Shown in pieces: positions 1 to 10,424 of a stretch of DNA of 10,424 bases. The DNA is taken from UHGV virus genome UHGV-0117022; one strand, given 5' to 3'. Made by a program: the position numbers and the translations under genes. The notes beneath the pieces were generated by a model. That model was not told the DNA's origin. It saw only the letters and a program-made list of their open reading frames with translations, and made no database searches. Position 1 is the stretch's first letter, and each line of letters opens with the position of its first letter. The stretch comes from a virus.

Positions 1-74
1 TCCGTAACGCCTCTGCCACGCGCGTAACGTGACAGGGATTAAGGGTAAACTAACTGATTTTACAAGTTTTTATT

Positions 75-1361
75 TTACCCCACTTTCTTATGGGGCATAC
101 ATGGGACACTTTCAGATAGTCTTTTGTTAAGGAGTTCTATCTGTTCGTGATTGTTGTCTTTCATCCATGCTCCGTAAACATTGAATACCATTTGTGCGTT
201 TGTGTGGCCCATCTGGCTTGCGATAAAACTAGGATTAGCTCCAGCGGCAAGTGACCAGCATGCATAAGTATGCCTGGATTGGTACGATTTTCTGTGTCTC
301 AGACCTGCGCGTTTTAAGATACTTGTCCATGACTCCCTGATGGAGTCAACCTTATAGTGCGGTCCGGAAAACTGCCGCTGTTTTATTACCTGAGGACTAA
401 AAACAAAAGTGCATTTATGCACAGTACTTCTCCCATATTCCCTCTGCTTTACCTCTACAGAATGTTGCTTTCCAAGCATGGTCATTTCCGCCTGACTTTT
501 AAGAGCATCAATAGCTGGTTGAACCAGATGAATTGTCCTTCCGGTGCCAGCATCGGTTTTTGGTGGAGTGAATTCGCCAAGTTTTGTATAATTCCTACGG
601 ATGGTTATAGTCCTTGCTTTAAGATCTATATCTTCCCATGCCAGCGATACCAGCTCCCCGTGACGAATACCCGTGTATACAGCGAGAATCCACAGGTTTT
701 TTGTTTGTTGATGACGGCAAGCCTCAATAAAACGAATAAATTCGTCACGGGTGAGAGGATCTGGTTTTACCTTGGACTTTTTTAAGGGTGCCAGACCGTT
801 AAATGGGTTTCCTGAGGTATAACCATTATCTGTTGCAAATTGAAACATTCCAGCTATGGTTGTCATATAGTAGTTTACTGTGACCACTGAGCGCCCTTTT
901 ATGGAAGAAATCTTTCCATTAGAAAGCTTATGGTAACCGGTCAACAAATCTCTCCTTGCGAAAAGTAAATCCTCTTTTGTTATGGATGAAACCAGTTTTT
1001 TCTCACCCAACATAGGCAACATGTTTTTAATTACTGACTGGTAACGATTAAGTGCATTCGCACAAATCTCAATTTTCTTAAGGTCCAACCATTTTTCCGA
1101 AAGTGCCTTAACGGTTATCTCTCTTTTTCCCAGACCAAAGTGTTTCAGGTTAGGGGAATTAGGGAACTGTGTGGCGTAGTCGAAACACCCCATTCTGATT
1201 GCAAAACAAACGGAAGTGCGAAGTTCACCTGCGATCTTCCGGTTTTTGGCGGTGTCAGGAACACCGAGGTTTTCTCTGACACGTTTGCCATTATAGTGAA
1301 ACCATATACGGAGTGATCCTCCATGGTTTTCAACGCCTGTCGGGTATGATACGTTACTCAT
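75..1361 (-). CDS. int: Tyrosine-type site-specific integrase (lambda Int family), 428 aa
   Basis: ATG at 1361..1359 preceded by GGGAGG RBS. C-terminal catalytic signature visible in the translation: TGIRHGEL (box I Arg), HRKSYQSRHTYA (His-x-x-Arg) and NVYGAW (catalytic Tyr). N-terminal region resembles an arm-binding domain. Confidence 0.92.
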   Translation of the reverse strand: MSNVSYPTGVENHGGSLRIWFHYNGKRVRENLGVPDTAKNRKIAGELRTSVCFAIRMGCFDYATQFPNSPNLKHFGLGKREITVKALSEKWLDLKKIEICANALNRYQSVIKNMLPMLGEKKLVSSITKEDLLFARRDLLTGYHKLSNGKISSIKGRSVVTVNYYMTTIAGMFQFATDNGYTSGNPFNGLAPLKKSKVKPDPLTRDEFIRFIEACRHQQTKNLWILAVYTGIRHGELVSLAWEDIDLKARTITIRRNYTKLGEFTPPKTDAGTGRTIHLVQPAIDALKSQAEMTMLGKQHSVEVKQREYGRSTVHKCTFVFSPQVIKQRQFSGPHYKVDSIRESWTSILKRAGLRHRKSYQSRHTYACWSLAAGANPSFIASQMGHTNAQMVFNVYGAWMKDNNHEQIELLNKRLSESVPCMPHKKVG

Positions 1362-1394
1362 TAAACCTCCCAGACGTCCAGGAGCATTAACAGG

Positions 1395-1649
1395 TTAACC
1401 GGAACTTGCATTTTTGGCACCTGGTTGTTTCTGGTTTTCGATCCATCGCATAATTTCTTCGATGTTGTACAGGCATTCACTGTAATGCCCAGGATCACCT
1501 TCTACAGCGTAATGGCGGTATTCTTTTCCCTGCATCCATGACTTTCTCCTGGCCCGCTCGATGGTGCCGGGCTTTAGCCCTGTTGATGCAATAAGGACTC
1601 TCTCCGTACACCATTTGCTGGGGGTTATCTGATAGATGATTGTCTGCAT
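1395..1649 (-). CDS. xis: Excisionase-like small DNA-binding protein, 84 aa
   Basis: Small basic ORF immediately upstream of and co-oriented with int; ATG at 1649..1647 with GAGG RBS. Call rests mainly on position and size; sequence similarity to a named Xis family was not verified. Confidence 0.55.
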   Translation of the reverse strand: MQTIIYQITPSKWCTERVLIASTGLKPGTIERARRKSWMQGKEYRHYAVEGDPGHYSECLYNIEEIMRWIENQKQPGAKNASSG

Positions 1650-1667
1650 GCCAACCTCATAAAACTT

Positions 1668-1802
1668 TCATCCACGGCAGTGGCACCACATTTCAAACAT
1701 TCGCTTCACAACTTCACGACAGTAGAAACCGTCAACATCTCGCGTCAGATCATAGCGATTGCCGTAACGCTGGTGGACCCATCGTTCAAATGCTTTATTC
1801 AT
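1668..1802 (-). CDS. Hypothetical small protein, 44 aa (MNKAFERWVHQRYGNRYDLTRDVDGFYCREVVKRMFEMWCHCRG)
   Basis: Not in the supplied ORF track (below its size cut-off); hand-translated. ATG at 1802..1800 preceded by AAAAGGAAG RBS, stop at 1670..1668. It fills the gap between the upstream ORF stop (1808..1806) and the xis RBS. Confidence 0.4.
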   Translation of the reverse strand: MNKAFERWVHQRYGNRYDLTRDVDGFYCREVVKRMFEMWCHCRG

Positions 1803-1805
1803 TCT

Positions 1806-2048
1806 TTACTTCCTTTTCATGGCTCGTAATTTTTTCAGATGAGCTTCCTGCTCTGTTTCTGCCAGAATTTTGCGGTACTCCTGGTGGTCAATATGTTCGA
1901 ACAGGCTGTTGAACTCAGTGATGCGTACCCGCCCGGAGCGCCCGTCCATCCTCCGAAAGAATACCGAGTGAACAGTACTGCGAGTAATTTTTACCGGGTA
2001 GCCAGCACTATCGGTGTATATCTGCCCGCGTTGAATCAAAGCGAACAT
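1806..2048 (-). CDS. Hypothetical protein, 80 aa from the first ATG (track ORF 1806..2084 begins at a TTG)
   Basis: Open frame in the leftward operon. The codon at 2084..2082 is TTG; the first ATG is at 2048..2046. No recognisable motif. Confidence 0.4.
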   Translation of the reverse strand: MFALIQRGQIYTDSAGYPVKITRSTVHSVFFRRMDGRSGRVRITEFNSLFEHIDHQEYRKILAETEQEAHLKKLRAMKRK

Positions 2049-2132
2049 GTGGTTATCCCCATCGACAAATCGAGAACACAACAAACGCTGCTGCGAATAC
2101 CACCCCCAGAGTTACGATTGCATCAGGCCAGC

Positions 2133-2882
2133 TCATTGATTCACCTCCTGCCTGTCGTCCGGCATTCGCTCACTACAGCTTATCCAACCATCCGGAGTTA
2201 CCGGAACTTGTGGAATGGCTGTCTGCTCTCGAACGTCATTAGGCGCTATAGGTTCTGCTGCCAACTGACTGGCATATTTGTTAATGGTAACGATAAGCTC
2301 TTGCTCAGCCTCATCCAGACAATCACCGATACCTCGCCTGTCACCGTCAAAATCATCGAAATCGGCACGAATCCTGGCAACCTTCAGGATTGCGGACAAC
2401 ACCTCACTAGGAATTGCCGGATAGTTGGTTGACGTTTCCGCGATTTCCCGAAAATTATTGGTTGACGAATTCTTGTTTTCCCGAAAGTTTCCGGACTGAA
2501 GCATGGCGGCGCGGCAGGAGTTCCAGGCAAATAGTGCGGCTTCTTCCACTGAAGGCGGAGAGTATCGCTCGATAAACGCCTGTGCATTTGACAGCCTCCA
2601 CTCATGAGGCAATACCGGCGCTGGCGGGGCGATGCGTCCAAGCAACTTATTTACCTCTTTCGCCATCGCGTCATATTTATCTAAATAGCGATTAGCTTCT
2701 AAGCAGACTCGGTGCATCTGATCTGAGTTAACTCGTTTAACGGGATCTGCTTCCAGCGATGCCAGTGCAATCCGTGCCAGTTCTTCCGCTTCTTCTGCTG
2801 GCAGTACAACGTTGCTACCCGGTCCGTATGTTTCGCGCCACTGCTTGATTGTCAGCAGTCGCCCTTTGGTAATAGTGATCAT
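2133..2882 (-). CDS. Hypothetical protein, 249 aa
   Basis: Long ORF whose start overlaps the stop of the upstream nuclease-like gene in an ATGA arrangement (2882..2879). The C-terminal WISCSERMPDD stretch is reminiscent of the start of phage DUF551-type domains, but this is unverified. Confidence 0.55.
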   Translation of the reverse strand: MITITKGRLLTIKQWRETYGPGSNVVLPAEEAEELARIALASLEADPVKRVNSDQMHRVCLEANRYLDKYDAMAKEVNKLLGRIAPPAPVLPHEWRLSNAQAFIERYSPPSVEEAALFAWNSCRAAMLQSGNFRENKNSSTNNFREIAETSTNYPAIPSEVLSAILKVARIRADFDDFDGDRRGIGDCLDEAEQELIVTINKYASQLAAEPIAPNDVREQTAIPQVPVTPDGWISCSERMPDDRQEVNQ

Positions 2883-3394
2883 GCCGCGTTTCCTTCTTTC
2901 TTATTAACAATCACACCGTCATATATTTCATTAAGGTGCCCTCTCAACTCCATGCGCCTTAATGCAGATAACATGTAATCGCATTCAACCTGCTTATTCC
3001 CGGTAAATGGCTTATCGTCAGGATTACCCCAACAGCAATTACCCCTGGGCCATCCATGTACTTTCCGTACTCTTCCGTTAACAACGTGAAGTAATCCCCA
3101 GCCGGGAGGTAAATCCTCAACTGAAATAATTTCCGGCTCACTAATAAAGAATCGCCAGTCGCCCATGCCAAGTGAGGGATTTTTACGGAAACGCTTTTTT
3201 CTATCTGCCAACAAGTCAGCACGAGAACACTTCGCCTCTATCAGGCATGATGCTGAATTTCTGAATCCCATAGCATCTGGCTGTTCTCCGGTACTGGTTA
3301 CAGCAACAAAGCGGTCATGAAAGCAAACCTTGAACCCGTTGCGCTTAAGGAACTTGTACGCAATCTGACAGAGTTCGTGGTGTGTTAACGCCAT
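2879..3394 (-). CDS. Putative PD-(D/E)xK-fold nuclease-like protein, 171 aa from the ATG at 3394 (track gives a TTG-extended 178 aa ORF to 3415)
   Basis: ATG at 3394..3392 is preceded by a near-perfect AAGGAG RBS. The translation contains QPD...(13 aa)...LIEAK, consistent with the PD-(D/E)xK nuclease motif (VRR-NUC/MmcB-like proteins are examples of that fold). Family assignment is not verified. Confidence 0.5.
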   Translation of the reverse strand: MALTHHELCQIAYKFLKRNGFKVCFHDRFVAVTSTGEQPDAMGFRNSASCLIEAKCSRADLLADRKKRFRKNPSLGMGDWRFFISEPEIISVEDLPPGWGLLHVVNGRVRKVHGWPRGNCCWGNPDDKPFTGNKQVECDYMLSALRRMELRGHLNEIYDGVIVNKKEGNAA

Positions 3395-3395
3395 A

Positions 3396-3710
3396 TCACT
3401 CTCCTTTGATGCCAATGTTTACAGCCTGGCAAGCCTCTTTGAGCACCCAGTCAACAGCGTCTTTCCATACTCCGGTTTCGACTGGCGGATTTTCACGCTT
3501 AACCTGTTCATAGAAGCGCACTGCTTTAATCAATCCTTCTGGTCCCTGCAAGTTAGCTCGCTGTTCTTCTTTGGTTTCCAGCTCATCCAGCAGCGCCAGC
3601 ACAACCTGAGGTGTGACTTTCATACGAAATGCCAGCAATTTTTGTGGTGTGGCTGCTATTTTTATTGCTTCTGCCGCCTCACGCAGTGCCTGATAGTCAA
3701 TCTTGTTCAC
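3396..3710 (-). CDS. Ead/Ea22-like family protein, 104 aa
   Basis: GTG start at 3710..3708 with AAGGAGG RBS, overlapping the upstream stop as GTGA. The N-terminal IDYQALREAAEA...ATP followed by LLDELE matches my recollection of the conserved Ead/Ea22-like N-terminus found in lambdoid prophage accessory regions. Confidence 0.6.
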   Translation of the reverse strand: MNKIDYQALREAAEAIKIAATPQKLLAFRMKVTPQVVLALLDELETKEEQRANLQGPEGLIKAVRFYEQVKRENPPVETGVWKDAVDWVLKEACQAVNIGIKGE

Positions 3711-4408
3711 TGGTTGCCTCCTTTGCGAAGCTCTGCGGCAAAGTCAACTAACCACTCGGTCATTTCAACCTTCCCTACCAGGTCTGAACCAGGAAACATA
3801 CAGCAATCACTCTGCGCCGCTTTGAAATCCTTATACTCATATTCCTGAGCCACCAGATTTTTTGCAGCGTCTATAGCAGCATCCACCCCCTGCGCCCGCA
3901 CTTCAGCCAGGCATTTGCGAAACTCGGAAACGTACTGTTCGACGCTCATTCCCCAGCTAAGTGGACATTCATTGAATGTTTCGCCTTCGTGCTCTTCATC
4001 AGGTAGCTCTTTGGTAAAGAACTCACGTTCAATGGCGTGGAGTGTGTCAGCAAAACGACGTAAGTTACTCAAACCTGTCGTAATGGAGAATTCAGGAGCA
4101 TCACATCCGACGCCCATCTGCTGATAAACGGCGGTTTTGAAGGCCTTAAGCCCCGCATTCTCCGCCGCCAGCGCCGAAAACTTCTCGTGTGCCAACTTAA
4201 CAGCCGCATCAGCCTGCTTAATTGACTCAATCGCTTTCTGCTGGTCTTCGGCCAGCGCATTAGCACGCACCAGTTGCACTTCCAGTTGCGTTGCCAAATC
4301 GCTGATCAGCTTTGCCACACTGCGCATATCAACGGCACCACATTCTGCTTTCAGTTCCGAAGCCATCTCATGCCCGGCGGCAACTAACCCTTTGATATTA
4401 CTTTCCAT
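3707..4408 (-). CDS. Hypothetical coiled-coil-rich protein, 233 aa
   Basis: ATG at 4408..4406 with GAGGA RBS. The N-terminal half is Ala/Glu/Lys/Gln-rich, suggesting coiled coil. Translationally coupled to the downstream Ea22-like gene. Confidence 0.55.
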   Translation of the reverse strand: MESNIKGLVAAGHEMASELKAECGAVDMRSVAKLISDLATQLEVQLVRANALAEDQQKAIESIKQADAAVKLAHEKFSALAAENAGLKAFKTAVYQQMGVGCDAPEFSITTGLSNLRRFADTLHAIEREFFTKELPDEEHEGETFNECPLSWGMSVEQYVSEFRKCLAEVRAQGVDAAIDAAKNLVAQEYEYKDFKAAQSDCCMFPGSDLVGKVEMTEWLVDFAAELRKGGNQ

Positions 4409-4469
4409 CTTTATCCTCGCTTATCCACATAACTTATTGATTACATTGATAACTAAAAAGATCGTCGAT

Positions 4470-4814
4470 TCAGAACTCTTCGATTTTCCAGCCACCACCT
4501 GCTTTCTTTGGCTTAACAGTTACCCCGATGATTCGGAACGGATATTGATCTGCGGCGACTTTGGTTTTCACCCTGGCGTCGTCGGTCCAGAAACCTTTCA
4601 CTTCGTGCAGTTCCATCTCTCCGGTGGCGAGCATCACAGCGAAATCTGGCGTATAGAACGTGTTATCAGCTAACCGCAGCTTGATACCCTCGAATCGATA
4701 CCAGGCGATTTCCCCTGCACGTTTACGCAGCTCAAGGTGCTGGCAATACGCAGATTCTGTTTTGTTCATCTGGCCTGTTTTGAGTCGACCAAGAGCCTGT
4801 ATCTGTTTTCTCAT
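4470..4814 (-). CDS. DUF1064-family phage protein (possible PD-(D/E)xK-like fold), 114 aa
   Basis: Motifs YCQHLELRKRAGEI ... YTPDF ... ELHEVKG match the conserved pattern I recall for DUF1064 proteins, which are common next to phage replication genes. ATG at 4814..4812. Confidence 0.6.
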   Translation of the reverse strand: MRKQIQALGRLKTGQMNKTESAYCQHLELRKRAGEIAWYRFEGIKLRLADNTFYTPDFAVMLATGEMELHEVKGFWTDDARVKTKVAADQYPFRIIGVTVKPKKAGGGWKIEEF

Positions 4815-4831
4815 GATTTACCCTTGAGCTA

Positions 4832-4903
4832 ATTAAAAACCACATAAGACACGAAATCAATAGATTTTAGAATATTTTATTACCCGCCAGGTAATCATTG
4901 AAA
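4832..4903 (-). promoter_or_regulatory. Putative repressor-controlled internal promoter region: operator ATTACC-CGCCA-GGTAAT at 4879..4895 flanked by sigma70-like hexamers
   Basis: Perfect copy of the immunity-region operator palindrome. On the minus strand it lies in an 18-bp spacer between -35 TTTCAA (plus 4903..4898) and -10 TAAAAT (4879..4874). A second, stronger candidate lies just downstream: -35 TTGATT (4860..4855), 17-bp spacer, -10 TTTAAT (4837..4832), about 20 bp before the DUF1064 start. Confidence 0.45.
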
Positions 4904-4904
4904 C

Positions 4905-4926
4905 GTAAAAAAATGCGCTATCGCGC
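4905..4926 (-). terminator. Weak candidate intrinsic terminator after the P-like gene
   Basis: On the minus strand, GCGC-GATA-GCGC (4-bp GC stem) is followed by a run of seven T. The stem is short, so the call is tentative. Confidence 0.3.
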
Positions 4927-4931
4927 TGGTA

Positions 4932-5717
4932 TTACTTGATAAATCCTGCCGCCTTTCCCCGCCTGTATTCCTCCATCAGCCACTGCGCCGGTGTTATTCC
5001 CCCCAGGGTGGCGGCGTTAGGCATGCACCCGAAACTTCGCCCTGGTGGATGGTAAACGTCTCTCCCTGTGTCCGGAGGTGTACTCATGGGTTCTGGCTTT
5101 GCCTGTATGCTGATCACCGGATCGGGTATCTGCTGTCCGGAAGCCACCTTTTTCGCCCAATCATCGAGCAGCCTGCGCGCGTGTTTCTCAACCTCAATCT
5201 CGCTAAGCTGGCGCTGATACATTGCACGGCGGGTATCACATACGACCCAGTACATAACCGGATGTCGCCACGGGAATCTTTCGGGACCACCAGGATATAA
5301 ACTTTTTTCCTTGCTGTACCGGTGAAACTCCGCCATCACATCGTCAATGGTGACGCCAAGAACCATCTTGCTGTCTTTACACCACTTGATAAATTGCCCT
5401 GGCGACGGCCAGAACGGAGATTCACTGGCGCGGGCGTGGCGCATACCAGCAGAAACCTGTTCACGGGTTCGGATCCCCCCTTCGGCAAACGCAGCAATCC
5501 ACTGCTGTTTTGCAGCAACTTCCTGCTCTTGCGTCTTCAGGTTGGTTACCACTGCCGCCGGAAACAGTTGTTTCAGCTGTTTGAAAAGGGCATCAACAAG
5601 CCTCTCTGCTGACATGTTCACCACGTTGTCATTGTTGGTGTACTGATGCTCATAACCTGACATGCGAGAAAGGGCTTCTCCGTCACGGTTTTGTATCGCG
5701 GTAAAAACGTTGTTCAC
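4932..5717 (-). CDS. P: Lambda P-like replication protein (replicative helicase loader), about 261 aa
   Basis: Clear similarity to recalled lambda P: window MRHARASESPFWPSPGQFIKWCKD versus lambda MRVARRQNRPFLPSPGQFVAWCRE. Likely start is GTG at 5717..5715 (GGAGGA RBS 6 nt upstream, GTGA overlap with the O-like stop) rather than the track ATG at 5732. Confidence 0.78.
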   Translation of the reverse strand: MNNVFTAIQNRDGEALSRMSGYEHQYTNNDNVVNMSAERLVDALFKQLKQLFPAAVVTNLKTQEQEVAAKQQWIAAFAEGGIRTREQVSAGMRHARASESPFWPSPGQFIKWCKDSKMVLGVTIDDVMAEFHRYSKEKSLYPGGPERFPWRHPVMYWVVCDTRRAMYQRQLSEIEVEKHARRLLDDWAKKVASGQQIPDPVISIQAKPEPMSTPPDTGRDVYHPPGRSFGCMPNAATLGGITPAQWLMEEYRRGKAAGFIK

Positions 5718-6529
5718 AAGAAATCCTCCCATGCTTCAGGGCTGTTCCAGTGCGGAACGTTGTTATCAGGTAATGTTGATTGCTTCTGTCTGCTAATCTG
5801 CAGCCTCCTTGCCAGCTTCTGCTCCCACTGTGCCTGATGGTATGCCTTACCCTCAGCCATCCAGTAAATTCTGAACTCTGCAAGTTCCTGTGCCGTTGGC
5901 AGACTGTCCAGGTAGATTCCCTGCAATGAGCTTTTCCGAAGAAAGTCATCTGATGGCTGCCATTGTTCATGCATGACAAATTTACCTAATTGCCCTGGCC
6001 CACCAGGAGGAACAAAGTTATTCATCACGGCGTTGTTTGCGACGGGGTCATGAGGCACAGAATCCCCGGTTTTTGTCCTGCTCTCCCTCTCTTGGTTAAA
6101 TGACTGGTTATATGACTGGTTCTGGATCCCGTTTTTGGGATCATTCAACATCCCGTTTTTGGGATCATTCAACATCCCGTTTTTGGGTATATTCCCGTTT
6201 TCGGTAACATTACCGTTTTCGGGTTCATTGCCCCCCTCCCGGTTGCCTTTAATGTTCCCGTTTTTGGTTATATTAAGAGAGAAAACCCGCACTCTTTTTG
6301 TCGCTCCCTTTCTCTCTCCGGTATCTGAAATAAGCCCCATTTTCATGAGCGATATAAGCCCGGCCTGCACGGTTTTTTTATTCAGGCAAGTGTCTTTAAC
6401 GAGGCGTTCTATGCTGGGGTAGCAGAGGTTATATTCATCGGCTCTGTCAGCCATCGAGAGCAGTATGAGCTTTAATGATGAGCTACCTGGATCTGTCTCC
6501 CAGGCCCAATCTGTTGCATGTCTGCTCAT
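5714..6529 (-). CDS. O: Replication initiator, functional analogue of lambda O: N-terminal HTH domain, Asn/Gly-rich repeat linker, C-terminal DnaT-like domain; 271 aa
   Basis: N-terminus LKLILLSMADRADEYNLCYPSIERLVKDTCLNKKTVQAGLISLMKMGLIS looks like a winged-HTH replication-initiator domain. C-terminus WQPSDDFL...ELAEFRIYWMAEGKAYHQAQWEQKLARRL resembles the DnaT C-terminal pattern. It sits directly upstream of and is coupled to the P-like gene, and carries iterons internally. Confidence 0.75.
   Translation of the reverse strand: MSRHATDWAWETDPGSSSLKLILLSMADRADEYNLCYPSIERLVKDTCLNKKTVQAGLISLMKMGLISDTGERKGATKRVRVFSLNITKNGNIKGNREGGNEPENGNVTENGNIPKNGMLNDPKNGMLNDPKNGIQNQSYNQSFNQERESRTKTGDSVPHDPVANNAVMNNFVPPGGPGQLGKFVMHEQWQPSDDFLRKSSLQGIYLDSLPTAQELAEFRIYWMAEGKAYHQAQWEQKLARRLQISRQKQSTLPDNNVPHWNSPEAWEDFL
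6126..6290. repeat. Iteron array (candidate replication origin) inside the O-like gene: six copies of (A/T)TCCCGTTTT(T)GGG
   Basis: Direct repeats read from the sequence at 6126..6141, 6150..6165, 6174..6189, 6192..6207, 6210..6225 and 6275..6290, with spacings of 24, 24, 18, 18 and 65 bp. Each unit has internal dyad symmetry (TCCC-N6-GGGA), as lambda ori iterons do. A further short direct repeat ATGACTGGTT x2 lies at 6101..6122. Confidence 0.6.
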
Positions 6530-6544
6530 GATTAATCTCCGCTA

Positions 6545-6745
6545 TCAGCTTGAGTGTTGTGGGGAGGAATTAATCATGATCTGCTTAATCTCTGCCCTGA
6601 TGCGACGGTTTGATTCCATGGTGCACTCAACACAGTGTCCGTTGTAAACCCAGCGTTCACTGTCATGTCCATGCTTACATGGTTTTCCGGTGTAGTAGCG
6701 TTTAAGTCCGCGCTTTGCGGCATCAATACGTGTAATGATTTCCAT
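6545..6745 (-). CDS. Small Cys/His zinc-ribbon-like protein, 66 aa from the ATG at 6745 (track ORF extends to 6808)
   Basis: Translation MEIITRIDAAKRGLKRYYTGKPCKHGHDSERWVYNGHCVEC contains a C-x-H ... H-C-x-x-C arrangement. It occupies the cII-like position between the Cro-like gene and the O-like gene. Start choice is uncertain (ATG at 6781 or 6745, both with weak RBS). Confidence 0.45.
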   Translation of the reverse strand: MEIITRIDAAKRGLKRYYTGKPCKHGHDSERWVYNGHCVECTMESNRRIRAEIKQIMINSSPQHSS

Positions 6746-6825
6746 GGTAAGCCCTGTTATTAGTATTGGGATTACGGTCATTTTGTGCTGACACAAAAAA
6801 AAGATCAACCAGATTTGGTTATTTA

Positions 6826-6840
6826 TTACCTTTGAGGTAC
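6826..6840. promoter_or_regulatory. Operator-like site TTACC-TTTGA-GGTAC (9 of 10 half-site matches)
   Basis: Same palindrome as the immunity-region operators, placed just downstream (in the leftward sense) of the terminator hairpin and upstream of the Zn-ribbon and replication genes. A nearby small palindrome AACCA-GATT-TGGTT lies at 6808..6821. Confidence 0.4.
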
Positions 6841-6846
6841 GAATAG

Positions 6847-6874
6847 ATATGAAAAGACCGCCGGGTGGCGGTCT
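6847..6874 (-). terminator. Intrinsic terminator candidate directly downstream of the Cro-like gene
   Basis: Perfect 8-bp stem AGACCGCC / GGCGGTCT (6855..6862 and 6867..6874) with a 4-nt loop. On the minus strand it is followed by TTTTCAT; there is no T-run on the plus strand. Confidence 0.5.
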
Positions 6875-6895
6875 ACAGAGGGTTGTAGCTGGATA

Positions 6896-7126
6896 TCATG
6901 AGTAGAAGAAGTATGCCAGTTCTGCTTTTGAGCGCAGCCATTGTCTTGTTTTACAGGCTTTAAAAAGCCCATTCATCAATACTTTACCTGGCATTTTGCG
7001 CTTACCTGTTAAGTGAGTCTGGATATAGTGACTCGTCGTTCCGGCTTCCTGTGCGAAGGCTTCACGCTCATCCGGAGTAAGTGCAAGCCAGTGCTTTTTG
7101 AAATCGAAATGTCCGTTATCGCTCAT
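6896..7126 (-). CDS. Cro/CII-like small HTH DNA-binding regulator, 76 aa
   Basis: Small ORF transcribed divergently from the repressor gene, starting 154 bp from it across the operator cluster. EREAFAQEAGTTSHYIQTHLTGKRK looks like an HTH followed by a basic stretch. The functional label is from position. Confidence 0.55.
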   Translation of the reverse strand: MSDNGHFDFKKHWLALTPDEREAFAQEAGTTSHYIQTHLTGKRKMPGKVLMNGLFKACKTRQWLRSKAELAYFFYS

Positions 7127-7162
7127 AGCTATTGCCTGATATTTATTTCAGATAATAAATAT

Positions 7163-7225
7163 TCACCCATAAGGTAACAAAAATCAAGGATAGTTACCTA
7201 TGAGGTGCATTTACCTGTTGGGTAA
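7163..7225. promoter_or_regulatory. Operator cluster (OR-like) between the divergent Cro-like and repressor genes: three TTACC-N5-GGTAA-type sites
   Basis: Sites at 7163..7177 (TCACC-CATAA-GGTAA), 7194..7208 (TTACC-TATGA-GGTGC) and 7211..7225 (TTACC-TGTTG-GGTAA, perfect). Promoter hexamers for both divergent genes must lie in 7127..7280, but I could not place them unambiguously. Confidence 0.6.
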
Positions 7226-7280
7226 TATTGCTTTAAATTGAATCATCTACTGATTCATATATGAGGCGATTTTCCAGAAA

Positions 7281-7865
7281 ATGAAAAGTATCCAGGACGT
7301 CCGCAGGCAAAATCTCAACGACTTGATCGACCGTGAATTCAATGGTGTTCAGACGCGGATGGCAGAAAAACTTGGAACTCAGGCAAATCTGGTAAACCGC
7401 TGGGCTCTTGGCAAGAAGGTTATCGGCGACCAGGTTGCGCGAAAAATTGAAGCTGCCGCCAATAAACCCCGTAACTGGCTTGATATCGATCGCTCGCTTT
7501 CTCAGGAAGGTTTTCAGCCTGTCGGCCCAAGCGACATTGGTCAGCTGGCGGCTCACAACCTGGAACGCTGGATGAGCGAAAGCCGCGACCTTTCAACGCA
7601 GGGAAAACTTCACCGCGCATCCGGCGTCGCCCAGGTGACAATCAGTCGCCTGTTAAACAATGAGGTCAGCGTTTCCATTTCCACCCTGGAGAATGTTGCA
7701 TCCGCATTCGGGCGTCACGGCTATGAATTACTGATTCACCCGCACGACCCTGCGACCATCAACTATGACCGCTCGCGCTACGCATTGTTACCCGAAACCG
7801 AGAAAGCAAAGATCGAAAGTTACATTGAATTTGTCATCAACCAGAACGAAAAAAACAAACAATAA
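7281..7865 (+). CDS. Prophage repressor (CI-like role) with two HTH (XRE-type) regions and no recognisable S24/LexA-type peptidase domain, 194 aa
   Basis: N-terminal VQTRMAEKLGTQANLVNRWALGKKVIGDQVARKIE and a second HTH-like segment GVAQVTISRLLNNEVSVSISTLENVASAFG. The gene is monocistronic, bracketed by operator clusters and followed by a strong terminator. I saw no Ala-Gly/Ser-Lys cleavage-domain signature. Confidence 0.7.
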   Translation: MKSIQDVRRQNLNDLIDREFNGVQTRMAEKLGTQANLVNRWALGKKVIGDQVARKIEAAANKPRNWLDIDRSLSQEGFQPVGPSDIGQLAAHNLERWMSESRDLSTQGKLHRASGVAQVTISRLLNNEVSVSISTLENVASAFGRHGYELLIHPHDPATINYDRSRYALLPETEKAKIESYIEFVINQNEKNKQ

Positions 7866-7885
7866 AATCATACTTTTCAGTAAGT

Positions 7886-7912
7886 AAGCCGCCTTCTGGC
7901 GGCTTTTTTATT
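7886..7912 (+). terminator. Rho-independent terminator of the repressor gene
   Basis: Stem AAGCCGCC / GGCGGCTT (8 bp) with loop TTCT, followed by TTTTTTATT, 21 bp after the repressor stop codon. Confidence 0.75.
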
Positions 7913-7922
7913 GCCTATACTA

Positions 7923-7999
7923 TTACCTGATGGGTAATTTTTTTAACTCATATCTATTGACATCAAACCAAATACGCATAATTATTACCTCAACGGTAA
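7923..7999 (+). promoter_or_regulatory. Rightward early promoter/operator region (PL-like role): two perfect operators flanking a consensus -35
   Basis: Operators at 7923..7937 (TTACC-TGATG-GGTAA) and 7985..7999 (TTACC-TCAAC-GGTAA). Consensus -35 TTGACA at 7957..7962; an AT-rich -10-like stretch (CATAAT/TAATTA, 7977..7984) abuts the second operator, though the exact -10 and spacing are ambiguous. The first rightward gene starts at 8019. Confidence 0.6.
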
Positions 8000-8018
8000 C
8001 AGACCGAGGTAACAAGTT

Positions 8019-8171
8019 ATGCAGTGGAAAATCATCAACGGTTGGTACTGCGTTACTGCATGCGGATTCATGAGCTGGAAGTTCCGCACCTTACAGGAAG
8101 GCATTAAGTGGGCTTTCGTCAGCAAAGAAGCTCGCGATGTGGCCAACGATAACGAGATATGGGAGGGCTGA
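8019..8171 (+). CDS. Hypothetical small Trp-rich protein, 50 aa (MQWKIINGWYCVTACGFMSWKFRTLQEGIKWAFVSKEARDVANDNEIWEG)
   Basis: Not in the ORF track (too short); hand-translated. ATG at 8019 with GAGGT RBS 8 nt upstream. Its stop TGA at 8169..8171 sits 2 nt before the next start and within that gene's GGGAGGG RBS. First gene after the rightward promoter. Confidence 0.45.
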   Translation: MQWKIINGWYCVTACGFMSWKFRTLQEGIKWAFVSKEARDVANDNEIWEG

Positions 8172-8173
8172 TA

Positions 8174-8473
8174 ATGAACGTTAATCAGCAGAAAAATCTT
8201 CAAAAAATCATGCTGGCATTCGACAAGGACTACCGCCTGTCAGAACAGCTATATGACCGACAAGTTGAACTGATTGAGAGCATCCGACTTCATCAACTGT
8301 CCTCAACTTTCGACGTTGTAACAGGCAAAGGCGTTCGTCAGGAAGTGCTGGAGGCTGCTAAAGACAGCCCTGAGTTCGAAGAACTGATGGATGCCTACCG
8401 GCGCGAGGCAATGGCAATTATAGCGCGCTGGGATCTGGCGGATCAGCTTGATGGACAGAGGGACGCGGCATGA
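8174..8473 (+). CDS. Hypothetical protein, 99 aa (track ORF begins at an upstream alternative start, 8159)
   Basis: ATG at 8174 with GGGAGGG RBS; the stop overlaps the exonuclease start as ATGA (8470..8473). No motif recognised. Confidence 0.5.
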   Translation: MNVNQQKNLQKIMLAFDKDYRLSEQLYDRQVELIESIRLHQLSSTFDVVTGKGVRQEVLEAAKDSPEFEELMDAYRREAMAIIARWDLADQLDGQRDAA

Positions 8474-9291
8474 AACCGGGAATTTATTTCGACATCAGCA
8501 ACGAAGACTACCACGCCGGTGACGGCGTGAGTAAGTCGCAACTGGACATGGTTGCCAAGAATCCGGCGCTTCTTAAATGGGTTCAGGCAGCACCAGAAGA
8601 CGAAGAGAAAAAGTCTGCACTGGATATGGGAACCGCATTGCACTGTCTGCTTCTGGAGCCTGGAGAATTCGACAAACGCTTCATTGTTTCACCGAAGTTC
8701 GATCGTCGGACGAAACAAGGTAAAGCTGACGAAGAAGCATTTCTTCGTGATGTAGCGGATATGGGGATTACGGTACTTGATGCCGAGCAGTGGCGGAAAC
8801 TGGAGCTGATGCGTGATAGCGCAATGGCTCACCCGGCGGCACGCTGGATGCTGGAAGCACCTGGTTACTGCGAAGCATCAATGTACTGGAACGATGAAGA
8901 GACGGGTGAGTTGTGCCGAATTCGTCCAGACAAATGGCTGAACGAGCACAACGTGATCGTCGACGTGAAAAAGGTTGCAGATATGGACCGTTTTGCACGT
9001 CACATCGAGGAATTCCGCTACCACGTGCAGGACGCAATGTACCGCGAAGGCGCAATGAGGGTTACTGGTCAGCCGCATGGTTTTTTCTTTCTTGCCGTGA
9101 GCGAAAGCATTGATTGTGGTCGGTATCCGGTACGCGTGTTCGGGCTGGATGCGCCGGATGTCGATGCCGGGCACGCTCTGTTCCGCCGGGATCTGAATAC
9201 CTATCACGAATGCCGCATCAGCGATGAATGGGGCGGCGTGGAAATTATTAAACGCCCTGAGTGGGCACGCAAACAGGATATGTACGTATGA
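8470..9291 (+). CDS. RecE-like (exonuclease VIII-type) PD-(D/E)xK recombination exonuclease, 273 aa
   Basis: N-terminal GIYFDISNEDYHAGDGVSKSQL matches the start I recall for short prophage exonuclease VIII / RecE C-terminal nuclease-domain proteins. RPD...IVDVK fits a PD-(D/E)xK core. It is coupled to the downstream annealing-protein gene. Confidence 0.7.
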   Translation: MKPGIYFDISNEDYHAGDGVSKSQLDMVAKNPALLKWVQAAPEDEEKKSALDMGTALHCLLLEPGEFDKRFIVSPKFDRRTKQGKADEEAFLRDVADMGITVLDAEQWRKLELMRDSAMAHPAARWMLEAPGYCEASMYWNDEETGELCRIRPDKWLNEHNVIVDVKKVADMDRFARHIEEFRYHVQDAMYREGAMRVTGQPHGFFFLAVSESIDCGRYPVRVFGLDAPDVDAGHALFRRDLNTYHECRISDEWGGVEIIKRPEWARKQDMYV

Positions 9292-10205
9292 GCAACGAAA
9301 TTGCAATCACCAATGATGTGTTGGCTATTCGGGGAATCGATGAAGTTACATGGAGCGCTCTGAAAAACAGTATTTACCCTGGGGCAAAAGATGAATCGGT
9401 AATGATGGCAGTCGATTACTGCCGGGCGCGTCAACTCGATCCTCTTCTTAAGCCGGTACACCTGGTACCAATGAGTGTTAAAGACTCGAAGAGTGGAAAG
9501 AATGAATGGCGCGACGTGGTCATGCCTGGCATTGGACTTTATCGCATTCAGGCCTACCGTTCCGGCGATTACGCAGGCGCTAATGAACCTGAGTTCGGTC
9601 CAGATGTAACACAAACGCTTTCAGGCGTGGAGGTTACCTTCCCTCAGTGGTGTAAGTACACCGTCAGCAAGCGAATGGCAAGCGGGGAAATCGTAGAGTT
9701 TAGCGCCAAAGAATACTGGATTGAGAACTATGCAACTGGGGGGCGTGACACATCGGCACCAAATGCCATGTGGAAAAAGCGCCCTTATGCGCAGTTGGCA
9801 AAATGCGCAGAGGCACAGGCATTACGTAAAGCATGGCCGGAGATTGGTCAACAAGCCACAGCTGAGGAAATGGAAGGTAAATATATCGACTCACCTGACA
9901 TTATTGAACGTGACGTAACTCCAAGAAGTCAGGCAAAGCACGGCACAGCATCCAGCATGAACAGTCTGATCAACGCTAAACCAGTGAAAAAGCATGATGA
10001 GCAAACGCGTAAAGCGGATAGCCGTGATCCAGAAGAAATGCTGATGGCCTTTACCAGCGCAGCGATGAATTACAGCACTGTCTCCGAACTGGATAAGGCT
10101 TACAAATACATTGCACAAAAACTTTCAGATGATGACGAACTGCTGGCAAAAGCCACCGACGTTTACAGCGTTCGTCGGGAAGAATTAAACGAAACATCTA
10201 TGTAA
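9288..10205 (+). CDS. Single-strand annealing protein of the Bet/RecT (Red-beta) superfamily, about 305 aa
   Basis: ATG at 9288 overlaps the exonuclease stop as ATGA (the track start at 9261 is a GTG). Segments VDYCRARQLDPLLKPVHLVP, GIGLYRIQAYRSGDYAG and MWKKRPYAQLAKCAEAQALRKAWPE align by eye with lambda Bet/RecT conserved blocks. Confidence 0.75.
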   Translation: MSNEIAITNDVLAIRGIDEVTWSALKNSIYPGAKDESVMMAVDYCRARQLDPLLKPVHLVPMSVKDSKSGKNEWRDVVMPGIGLYRIQAYRSGDYAGANEPEFGPDVTQTLSGVEVTFPQWCKYTVSKRMASGEIVEFSAKEYWIENYATGGRDTSAPNAMWKKRPYAQLAKCAEAQALRKAWPEIGQQATAEEMEGKYIDSPDIIERDVTPRSQAKHGTASSMNSLINAKPVKKHDEQTRKADSRDPEEMLMAFTSAAMNYSTVSELDKAYKYIAQKLSDDDELLAKATDVYSVRREELNETSM

Positions 10206-10254
10206 CCACCACCGCGGCGCCACACGCGCCGCACTGCAACCAAGAGAGGTATTT

Positions 10255-10424
10255 ATGAAAGGTGCATTAGATAAGAAGAAACTCCTGGCGGTGGTGCCAC
10301 TGTCATGGAGCACTATCGACCGTATGGAGCGCGCAGGTGAATTTCCTAAACGCTGGTATATCACTGACAAACGCTGCGCATGGAACCGTGACGAAGTTGA
10401 GCGTTGGCTTGATGAACGTCAGGC
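10255..10424 (+). CDS. AlpA/excisionase-like HTH protein, partial (3' end beyond window)
   Basis: ATG at 10255 with AGAGAGG RBS. Translation MKGALDKKKLLAVVPLSWSTIDRMERAGEFPKRWYITDKRCAWNRDEVERWLDERQ shows the AlpA-family pattern: short N-terminal HTH followed by W...E.E.WL. The frame is open to the window end. Confidence 0.55.
   Translation, partial: MKGALDKKKLLAVVPLSWSTIDRMERAGEFPKRWYITDKRCAWNRDEVERWLDERQ

Follow-up and report, generated by a model that had tools for sequence, protein, structure and literature searches.

What does a nuclease-like protein encoded close to the integrase gene of a lambdoid phage do, and do the genes around it form a cassette? The question is raised by the interval 1668-3415 of a 10,424-nucleotide stretch of DNA (the window) from the UHGV virus genome UHGV-0117022. 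Between an Ea22-like gene and the excisionase gene xis, a first-pass annotation had placed here an integrase-proximal accessory cassette, in which a putative PD-(D/E)xK nuclease of 171 amino acids (NUC) was coupled to a 249-residue protein. The interval is ordinary early-operon cargo of Escherichia coli lambdoid phages, with no sign of an anti-phage defence system. Rather than forming one cassette, it would consist of two pieces that lie side by side in a long phage early operon with tightly packed genes. The first piece would be a mobile module consisting of an Ead/Ea22-like gene, the NUC gene and an Eaa/DUF551-type mosaic gene; the second would be an integrase-proximal set containing a 27-residue membrane peptide, a DUF4222 protein, a 44-residue protein, xis and int.

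The motif that had marked the 171-residue protein as a nuclease is well preserved. It consists of the sequences QPD (residues 38-40) and LIEAK (residues 51-55). Residues D27, E37, D40, E53 and K55 are invariant in an alignment of 30 Enterobacterales relatives. Among relatives at 35-56% identity D40 is invariant, E37, E53 and K55 are at least 90% conserved, and a helix motif, SRxDFxAD, is also conserved. The AlphaFold model of NUC (predicted local distance difference test score, pLDDT, 79.5; predicted template modelling score, pTM, 0.75) contains the α-β-β-β-α-β core that defines the PD-(D/E)xK fold. D40 is positioned immediately ahead of strand β2 and the ExK sequence is within β3, so the catalytic D...(D/E)xK residues are situated on the two strands expected of these enzymes, and they are kept across the relatives. 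The model is similar over the whole chain to 3DNX (SPO1766), which we take to be the structure that represents the MmcB-like family PF06319. The similarity includes a C-terminal β-hairpin and helices (residues 96-160). A profile search of the Protein Data Bank (PDB) returned 3DNX at a formally non-significant E value of 0.52, in an alignment that shares the motif IE.K.SR.DF.AD.K; searches of the PDB with single proteins gave chance-level matches alone.

NUC itself matches no Pfam family, PF06319 and PF01870 included, even at E up to 10. An NCBIfam scan of all genes of the window gave nothing meaningful, and NUC has no match there. Its relatives are more informative when scanned singly: 19 of 32 weakly match the Pfam family Hjc (PF01870; best E 1.3e-4, below the gathering score) and 11 of 32 weakly match the MmcB-like family PF06319 (DUF1052; best E 2.9e-4). 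One of the relatives, P0380, passes the PF06319 cut-off (23.1 bits versus 22). A Foldseek search of viral models with NUC retrieves phage proteins named 'MmcB-like DNA repair protein'. NUC was assigned to PHROGs 9263 and 631, both of unknown function, and all 308 homolog clusters found by a word-indexed search are unnamed or 'hypothetical'; the protein had no usable annotation. The family is nevertheless large: an exhaustive profile search (E up to 0.001) yielded 3298 representatives at 50% identity. The ratio of non-synonymous to synonymous substitution rates (dN/dS) between NUC and its relatives is 0.03-0.10; at 75% amino-acid identity, synonymous sites have reached saturation. The frame is therefore real coding sequence under strong purifying selection. 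The profile searches and structure prediction that the first-pass annotation had proposed for this protein thus lead to a PD-(D/E)xK fold with sub-threshold Hjc and MmcB-like relatives, and its nuclease assignment stands. As judged from motif, predicted fold and weak family matches, NUC is a genuine PD-(D/E)xK nuclease of the MmcB-like/Hjc-like branch, for which DNA cleavage is predicted.

The annotation of this gene in public records is poor. In RefSeq genomes of E. coli the intact gene is either not called or flagged as a 'frameshifted' or 'incomplete hypothetical protein' (loci L001, 8591-9103; L002, 7778-8290; and L054-L057). The idea that the gene is broken in the 'frameshifted' relatives was rejected, because the open reading frame (ORF) there is intact and 100% identical. 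The RefSeq record of P7 labels an intact NUC gene (upf89.0; L063, 4661-5176) as 'minor tail protein', and NUC matches in Acinetobacter and Burkholderia plasmids fall under genes annotated 'adenylosuccinate synthase' (among H79, H80 and H156). Some database proteins fuse NUC to DUF551 (P0340), to a dATP/dGTP pyrophosphohydrolase domain (P0344) or to TniB (fusion set P0340, P0344 and P0257), and one E. coli copy adjoins a protein with the pyrophosphohydrolase domain. These fusions and neighbors may reflect a link to modified-nucleotide modules, or the fusions may be gene-calling artefacts.

NUC is common and is not tied to the integrase. The exact 171-residue protein is indexed in 9926 blocks of an assembly collection. 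At a nucleotide identity of at least 90%, 928 of 5426 complete E. coli genomes (~17%) carry the gene, which was located at 1049 places on chromosomes and 248 on plasmids; a single genome has up to 6 copies. In E. coli it is always part of a three-gene module, in which an Ead/Ea22-like gene is followed by NUC and then by an Eaa/DUF551-type gene encoding 172-401 residues; the Ead_Ea22 gene was found upstream of NUC in every E. coli context examined. The module occupies four kinds of site. It is located at the distal end of a leftward early operon, next to DUF4222, xis and int (L048, L049, L051 and L054-57); in a nin-type region, between O/P on one side and RusA and Q on the other (L050); between O/P with DUF1064 and the terminase in a podovirus-like prophage (L053 and L001); and, in P7, downstream of the annotated C1 operator Op(hea). 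The integrase-proximal slot, which had been taken as a guide to function, is not a property of NUC, because the identical protein is also encoded ahead of terminase genes and, following O/P, within nin-type regions, and because plasmid leading regions contain a homolog of 66% identity. The nearness of NUC to the integrase is incidental.

Outside E. coli the neighborhood changes. In prophages of Serratia, Morganella and Klebsiella the NUC homolog is in the nin region amid NinB, NinG, DUF1367, Dam and Q, and the genes downstream of it differ from one prophage to another. The wider set of contexts comprised 34 genomes, from Enterobacterales to Shewanella, Salinicola, an alphaproteobacterial metagenome-assembled genome and Flavobacterium. 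A 4-nucleotide overlap of the NUC homolog with the next gene is frequent in this set, and the next gene is variable. The 26 downstream neighbors that were scanned include DUF551 (three times), N6_N4 methyltransferase (twice), RusA, a NinB-like protein, TraC, zinc-finger proteins and others; NinF and NinG also occur downstream of NUC homologs. No single partner family adjoins NUC across the range of these 26 neighbors, and outside E. coli a blastp search with the 249-residue protein gave linker-length matches alone. The variability of the downstream gene indicates that NUC has no obligate partner. Other genes near NUC homologs encode RdgC, phage O protein, C5 and N6 methyltransferases and TraC. 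NUC adjoins traC in two conjugative-element contexts (L030 and L036) and an orphan DNA methyltransferase (N6/N4 or C5) at four loci (L016, L019, L033 and L040).

A second habitat of the family is the leading region of conjugative plasmids; NUC homologs were found in 865 plasmid records. On IncF plasmids the gene order is ssb, DUF905, a ParB-like gene, psiB, psiA, the NUC homolog, hok and, further on, traM. The IncF homolog (P0090; L043-L046 and L064) is a protein of 172 residues that has the same catalytic residues and whose gene overlaps psiA by 1 nucleotide. The order NUC...hok recurs in phages (L050), and in 933W hokW follows the 27-codon ORF described below.

The 249-residue protein had been called a protein of unknown function. 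It does belong to a named family, however. It has an identical counterpart and is 98-100% identical, over at least 97% of its length, to proteins named Eaa or DUF551 domain-containing protein. The longer relatives (293-311 residues, 98-100% identical) have a full DUF551 domain (PF04448), of which the window protein retains only profile positions 1-16 of 68. The long forms end in SERMPDDGQEV, a core of about 50 residues and PLPEPPQEVNQ, versus SERMPDDRQEVNQ in the short form, whose C-terminus reads MPDDRQEVNQ. The comparison is consistent with loss of the DUF551 core by a deletion that kept the frame and ran from one QEV repeat to another (window 2133-2205, minus strand), and the protein is best described, from its sequence, as a DUF551-deleted short form of the Eaa/DUF551 mosaic protein. 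The idea that the truncation marks a junction unique to the window was rejected: ordinary mlrA prophages have the same short allele, and short forms are common in general, a 253-residue variant being found on 861 contigs. The N-terminus of the protein is conserved over 45 residues; after it come helical middle modules that can be swapped, a PDGW linker and a C-terminal domain that can likewise be exchanged. Variants of Ea22 in Shiga toxin (Stx) phages have been described with this mosaic plan of an N-terminal segment, a middle of helical modules and an exchangeable C-terminal domain (PMC10834534). The window protein has no Pfam Ead_Ea22 match. The AlphaFold model obtained for it is helical, but its low reliability (pLDDT 39.6) made it too poor for a fold search. 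The linker PDGWISCSERMPD, at the start of DUF551, is a recombination hot spot that is matched alone in hundreds of phages.

Taken together, these data suggest the following picture. NUC would be a metal-dependent PD-(D/E)xK endonuclease of the MmcB-like/Hjc-like branch, produced early, either in the course of lytic growth or once the element has entered a new cell. It would cut branched, stalled or damaged DNA of the element that encodes it, and such cutting would aid replication, recombination or repair of that element. The 249-residue protein would be helical, belong to the Ea22 family and have lost the DUF551 domain from its C-terminus, and it would be a neighbor of NUC by mosaic linkage, not an obligate partner. 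The role of NUC in the element's own DNA metabolism is favored because of the MmcB-like/Hjc-like fold and because of the company of O/P, NinB, NinG, RusA, RdgC and SSB; we prefer it tentatively. What the computation shows is that NUC has the fold and the catalytic motif, evolves under purifying selection, occurs in a range of contexts and lacks a conserved partner; when it is expressed, what it cuts and which biological role it has are inferred. Several observations weigh on the other side. The failure of NUC itself to match any Pfam family has been mentioned. Furthermore, RusA, NinG and a DUF1064 resolvase-like gene accompany NUC, which is therefore not simply the junction resolvase of its element. 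The position after psiB and psiA and the recurrent orphan methyltransferase neighbors fit an anti-defence or establishment role equally well, and a sharp-edged block of about 670 bp that is ~99% identical in many backgrounds could instead result from selfish spread.

The first of these alternatives is that NUC is an entry factor common to phages and conjugative plasmids, which in the first minutes in a new cell destroys a nucleic acid or an intermediate of host defence, or processes the incoming DNA. In favor of this are the place of the homolog in IncF leading regions, where it comes directly after ssb, a ParB-like gene, psiB and psiA and keeps its motif intact, and the 865 plasmid records. 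According to one study (PMC11541004), leading regions of conjugative plasmids are hot spots of, and enriched for, anti-defence genes. The orphan methyltransferases that adjoin NUC at four loci, and its position amid small early genes of a large phage contig, point the same way. However, NUC matches no known anti-defence family, and the main text of that study (Nature 2024) does not name the NUC family. Hitch-hiking could account for the plasmid position, since hok is next to the homolog there and comes after the module in phages too, and PD-(D/E)xK enzymes with an MmcB-like/Hjc-like core are classically enzymes of DNA repair or resolution. We consider the explanation rather unlikely. The broader proposal that NUC is an unrecognised entry or establishment nuclease of both temperate-phage early operons and F-type leading regions, with the 27-residue peptide as a second undescribed early product, seems to us similarly doubtful.

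The selfish alternative is that NUC is a homing-like endonuclease gene, spreading by cutting NUC-less alleles at the Ea22/Eaa junction. In a blastn search with the window, the block was 98.96-99.4% identical to L048-L053, with the same sharp ends at ~2746 and ~3417, and it has these boundaries in at least six different phage backgrounds. The frequency of NUC in E. coli and its multiple copies would fit such spread, as would phages BP-4795 and 933W, which carry Ea22-like and Eaa/DUF551-type genes without NUC between them. Nevertheless, the family is ancient and broad, as its 3298 clusters show, and it is under strong purifying selection in unrelated neighborhoods across Gammaproteobacteria, in the alphaproteobacterial genome and in Flavobacterium. 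Exchange of mosaic segments at conserved linkers is what this region generally shows, and we know of no MmcB-like homing enzyme. Homing is therefore quite improbable.

The interpretation offered originally was that the interval is expressed in the lysogen, as cargo for superinfection exclusion, lysogenic conversion or anti-phage defence. The module does adjoin int and xis in prophages of the mlrA type and in related ones, defence systems often have nucleases as effectors, and the small membrane peptide, DUF4222 and the 44-residue protein have no assigned functions. However, a scan of the four ORFs in 1668-3415 against PADLOC-DB 2.0 (E up to 0.1) matched no family, in keeping with the earlier remark that none of these proteins could be assigned to a known defence family. 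The single PADLOC match was a chance-level one to HamA (E 0.026), on the upstream 104-residue gene outside the interval. A promoter and terminator scan gave no signal exceeding chance, and an Rfam scan gave no match. All the genes are co-directional and contiguous with the early operon: an unbroken run extends on the minus strand from int through the cro-like gene, and the interval genes are joined by overlaps or gaps of a few bases. NUC is mostly far from int, and in P7 the module is part of an operon with an annotated C1 operator. The missing PADLOC and NCBIfam matches, the missing promoter and terminator signals and the single long early operon make lysogen-expressed cargo unlikely, in our judgement even more so than homing. 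Together with an obligate pairing of NUC and the 249-residue protein, lysogen-expressed defence is the least supported of the proposals.

That pairing, in which the 249-residue protein would regulate or neutralise NUC in the manner of a toxin-antitoxin or nuclease-adaptor system, might be suggested by the ATGA overlap of the two genes (gcATGAtc, as had been reported), by the first ~45 codons of the downstream gene, which always travel with NUC in E. coli, and by the database fusions, but it is very improbable because the gene downstream of NUC is unrelated outside E. coli, the E. coli partner varies in length and C-terminus, lacking the DUF551 domain in the window copy, and the plasmid and Serratia/Morganella copies have no such neighbor; the overlap with a downstream gene is itself common, but that gene varies.

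Early expression in the service of the element's own DNA thus remains the preferred reading of NUC, and the layout of the window (Table 1) can be described with it in mind. All four minus-strand ORFs named by the first-pass annotation are present, and so are the flanking genes it had recognised, an Ead_Ea22 gene upstream and a DUF1233 excisionase gene downstream. The count of four genes is too low, because a fifth ORF, of 27 codons, fills a gap between two of them. An AAGGAG Shine-Dalgarno sequence precedes the NUC ATG at 3394.

Table 1. Features of the interval 1668-3415 and its flanks (positions in the window)
Feature	Position	Strand	Remarks
int, integrase	75-1361	minus	part of mlrA-integrating prophage (L058 runs on into mlrA)
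xis, excisionase	1395-1649	minus	DUF1233 Pfam match; mlrA-integrating prophage
44-residue protein	1668-1802	minus	phrog_3871 (PHROG E 1.5e-31); no assigned function
80-residue DUF4222 protein	1806-2048	minus	ATG at 2048; 92 residues if TTG at 2084 is used (1806-2084)
27-codon ORF MSWPDAIVTLGVVFAAAFVVFSICRWG	2053-2136	minus	unannotated; putative single-pass membrane microprotein
249-residue Eaa/Ea22-type mosaic protein	2133-2882	minus	short form without DUF551 core
171-residue MmcB-like/Hjc-like PD-(D/E)xK nuclease (NUC)	2879-3394	minus	178 residues from TTG; ORF to 3415
104-residue Ead/Ea22-like protein	3396-3710	minus	Pfam Ead_Ea22 E 1.6e-9; upstream member of mobile module
233-residue ORF	3707-4408	minus	next upstream of 104-residue gene
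DUF1064, lambda-P-like, O/DnaT-like and cro-like genes		minus	further members of the same unbroken gene run
~670-bp block	2746-3417		NUC and first ~45 codons of downstream gene; ~99% identical across phage backgrounds

The 27-codon ORF occupies the 85-nucleotide space between the 249-residue and DUF4222 genes. Its ATG overlaps the stop codon of the former (ATGA), and its own stop is 4 nucleotides before the next ATG. In BP-4795 and 933W the frame has the same length at 65-72% nucleotide identity, the other frames are closed, and the pattern M-x-W-P-[DE]-A...[FY]-S-[IL]-[CF]-R-W-[GR] is kept (L060, 2753-2836; L061, 2501-2584). Its dN/dS is 0.2-0.55, and full-length tblastn matches were found in 70 phage records. 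The product may be a single transmembrane helix, a reading taken from its hydrophobic residues and not from a prediction tool. The 80-residue protein belongs to DUF4222 (PF13973; E 1.4e-14, 53.8 bits versus a cut-off of 27; phrog_285). Its gene always accompanies a 44/48-residue gene, xis and int of this type, and the position of the 44-residue gene between DUF4222 and xis is conserved. The 27-codon ORF, the DUF4222 gene and the 44-residue gene recur as a fixed set beside excisionase and integrase genes of this type.

The window is the reverse complement of a 12.2-kb metagenome contig of 4.4x coverage (ERZ1755949 NODE_1686), which runs on into mlrA. Positions 1-3418 are 97.8% identical to ordinary mlrA prophages, and positions 3888-10424 are 99% identical to a different type of phage, in which the operon runs towards terminase genes. 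As a result of these two differing parts, the cro-O-P operon of the window reads straight into xis and int. None of the complete E. coli genomes covers at least 80% of the window. The junction zone (~3418-4255) marks either a real recombinant, formed via the shared Ea22-family region, or an assembly chimera. Elsewhere in the window, the DUF1064 protein (4470-4814, minus strand) matches PHROG 190, 'Holliday junction resolvase'. A 273-residue protein (8470-9291, plus strand) has a Pfam DUF3799 match and close relatives annotated as PD-(D/E)XK nuclease-like domain proteins, and a RecT/Bet-type recombinase is encoded at 9261-10205 (plus strand).

The proteins of the interval are of known kinds, namely an MmcB-like PD-(D/E)xK nuclease of a subfamily that Pfam does not capture, an Eaa/Ea22 mosaic protein and a DUF4222 protein. 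The novelty is practical rather than conceptual and resides in the size of the NUC family and its poor RefSeq annotation. New are the dual distribution of NUC between phages and plasmid leading regions, the Ea22-NUC-Eaa module that moves between operons, and the conserved, unannotated 27-codon ORF for a putative membrane peptide. It is of significance that the carriers of NUC include relatives of Stx phages, P1/P7-type phage-plasmids and IncF plasmids. Reading NUC as an intact, strongly selected MmcB-like nuclease corrects the skipped or pseudogene annotation in the RefSeq records examined, and provides one of the numerous 'ea/nin' accessory genes with a concrete hypothesis about its biochemistry. 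It points to a directly testable function common to phage early operons and plasmid leading regions and does not reveal a new defence system.

NUC and its neighbors can be compared with several known systems. The islands of plasmid leading regions contain ssb, psiB, psiA, ardA and orphan methyltransferases, and in IncF the NUC homolog immediately follows psiA; the likeness is one of gene position, the family being unnamed in the main text of PMC11541004. The 249-residue protein has a mosaic build similar to that of lambda Ea22, P22 EaA and the Stx Ea22 variants with DUF551. Ea22 has reported pro-lysogenic activity, whereas the likeness of the window protein to it is one of sequence and build.

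Among the closest known systems are the MmcB-like nucleases. The whole chain is comparable to 3DNX, although the window protein has no PF06319 match. MmcB of Caulobacter is an SOS-regulated PD-(D/E)XK endonuclease that gives protection from mitomycin C (PMC9578287). Literature searches for MmcB, alone or with 'phage', returned annotation-level mentions only. MmcB is a chromosomal SOS gene, whereas NUC is encoded by phages and plasmids, and a role of NUC in cross-link repair would be hypothetical. The archaeal Holliday-junction resolvases of the Hjc type are homodimers that cleave four-way junctions. NUC resembles them and other minimal PD-(D/E)xK nucleases in fold, and its relatives match their family below the gathering score, but NUC has an additional C-terminal β-hairpin and helices (residues 96-160). 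To NinG and RusA of the nin region NUC has no sequence or fold relation, and it occurs alongside them, not in their place. With these functions (NinB/Orf, NinG/Rap and RusA) it nevertheless shares neighborhood and operon in many prophages, and it plausibly has a similar role on branched DNA.

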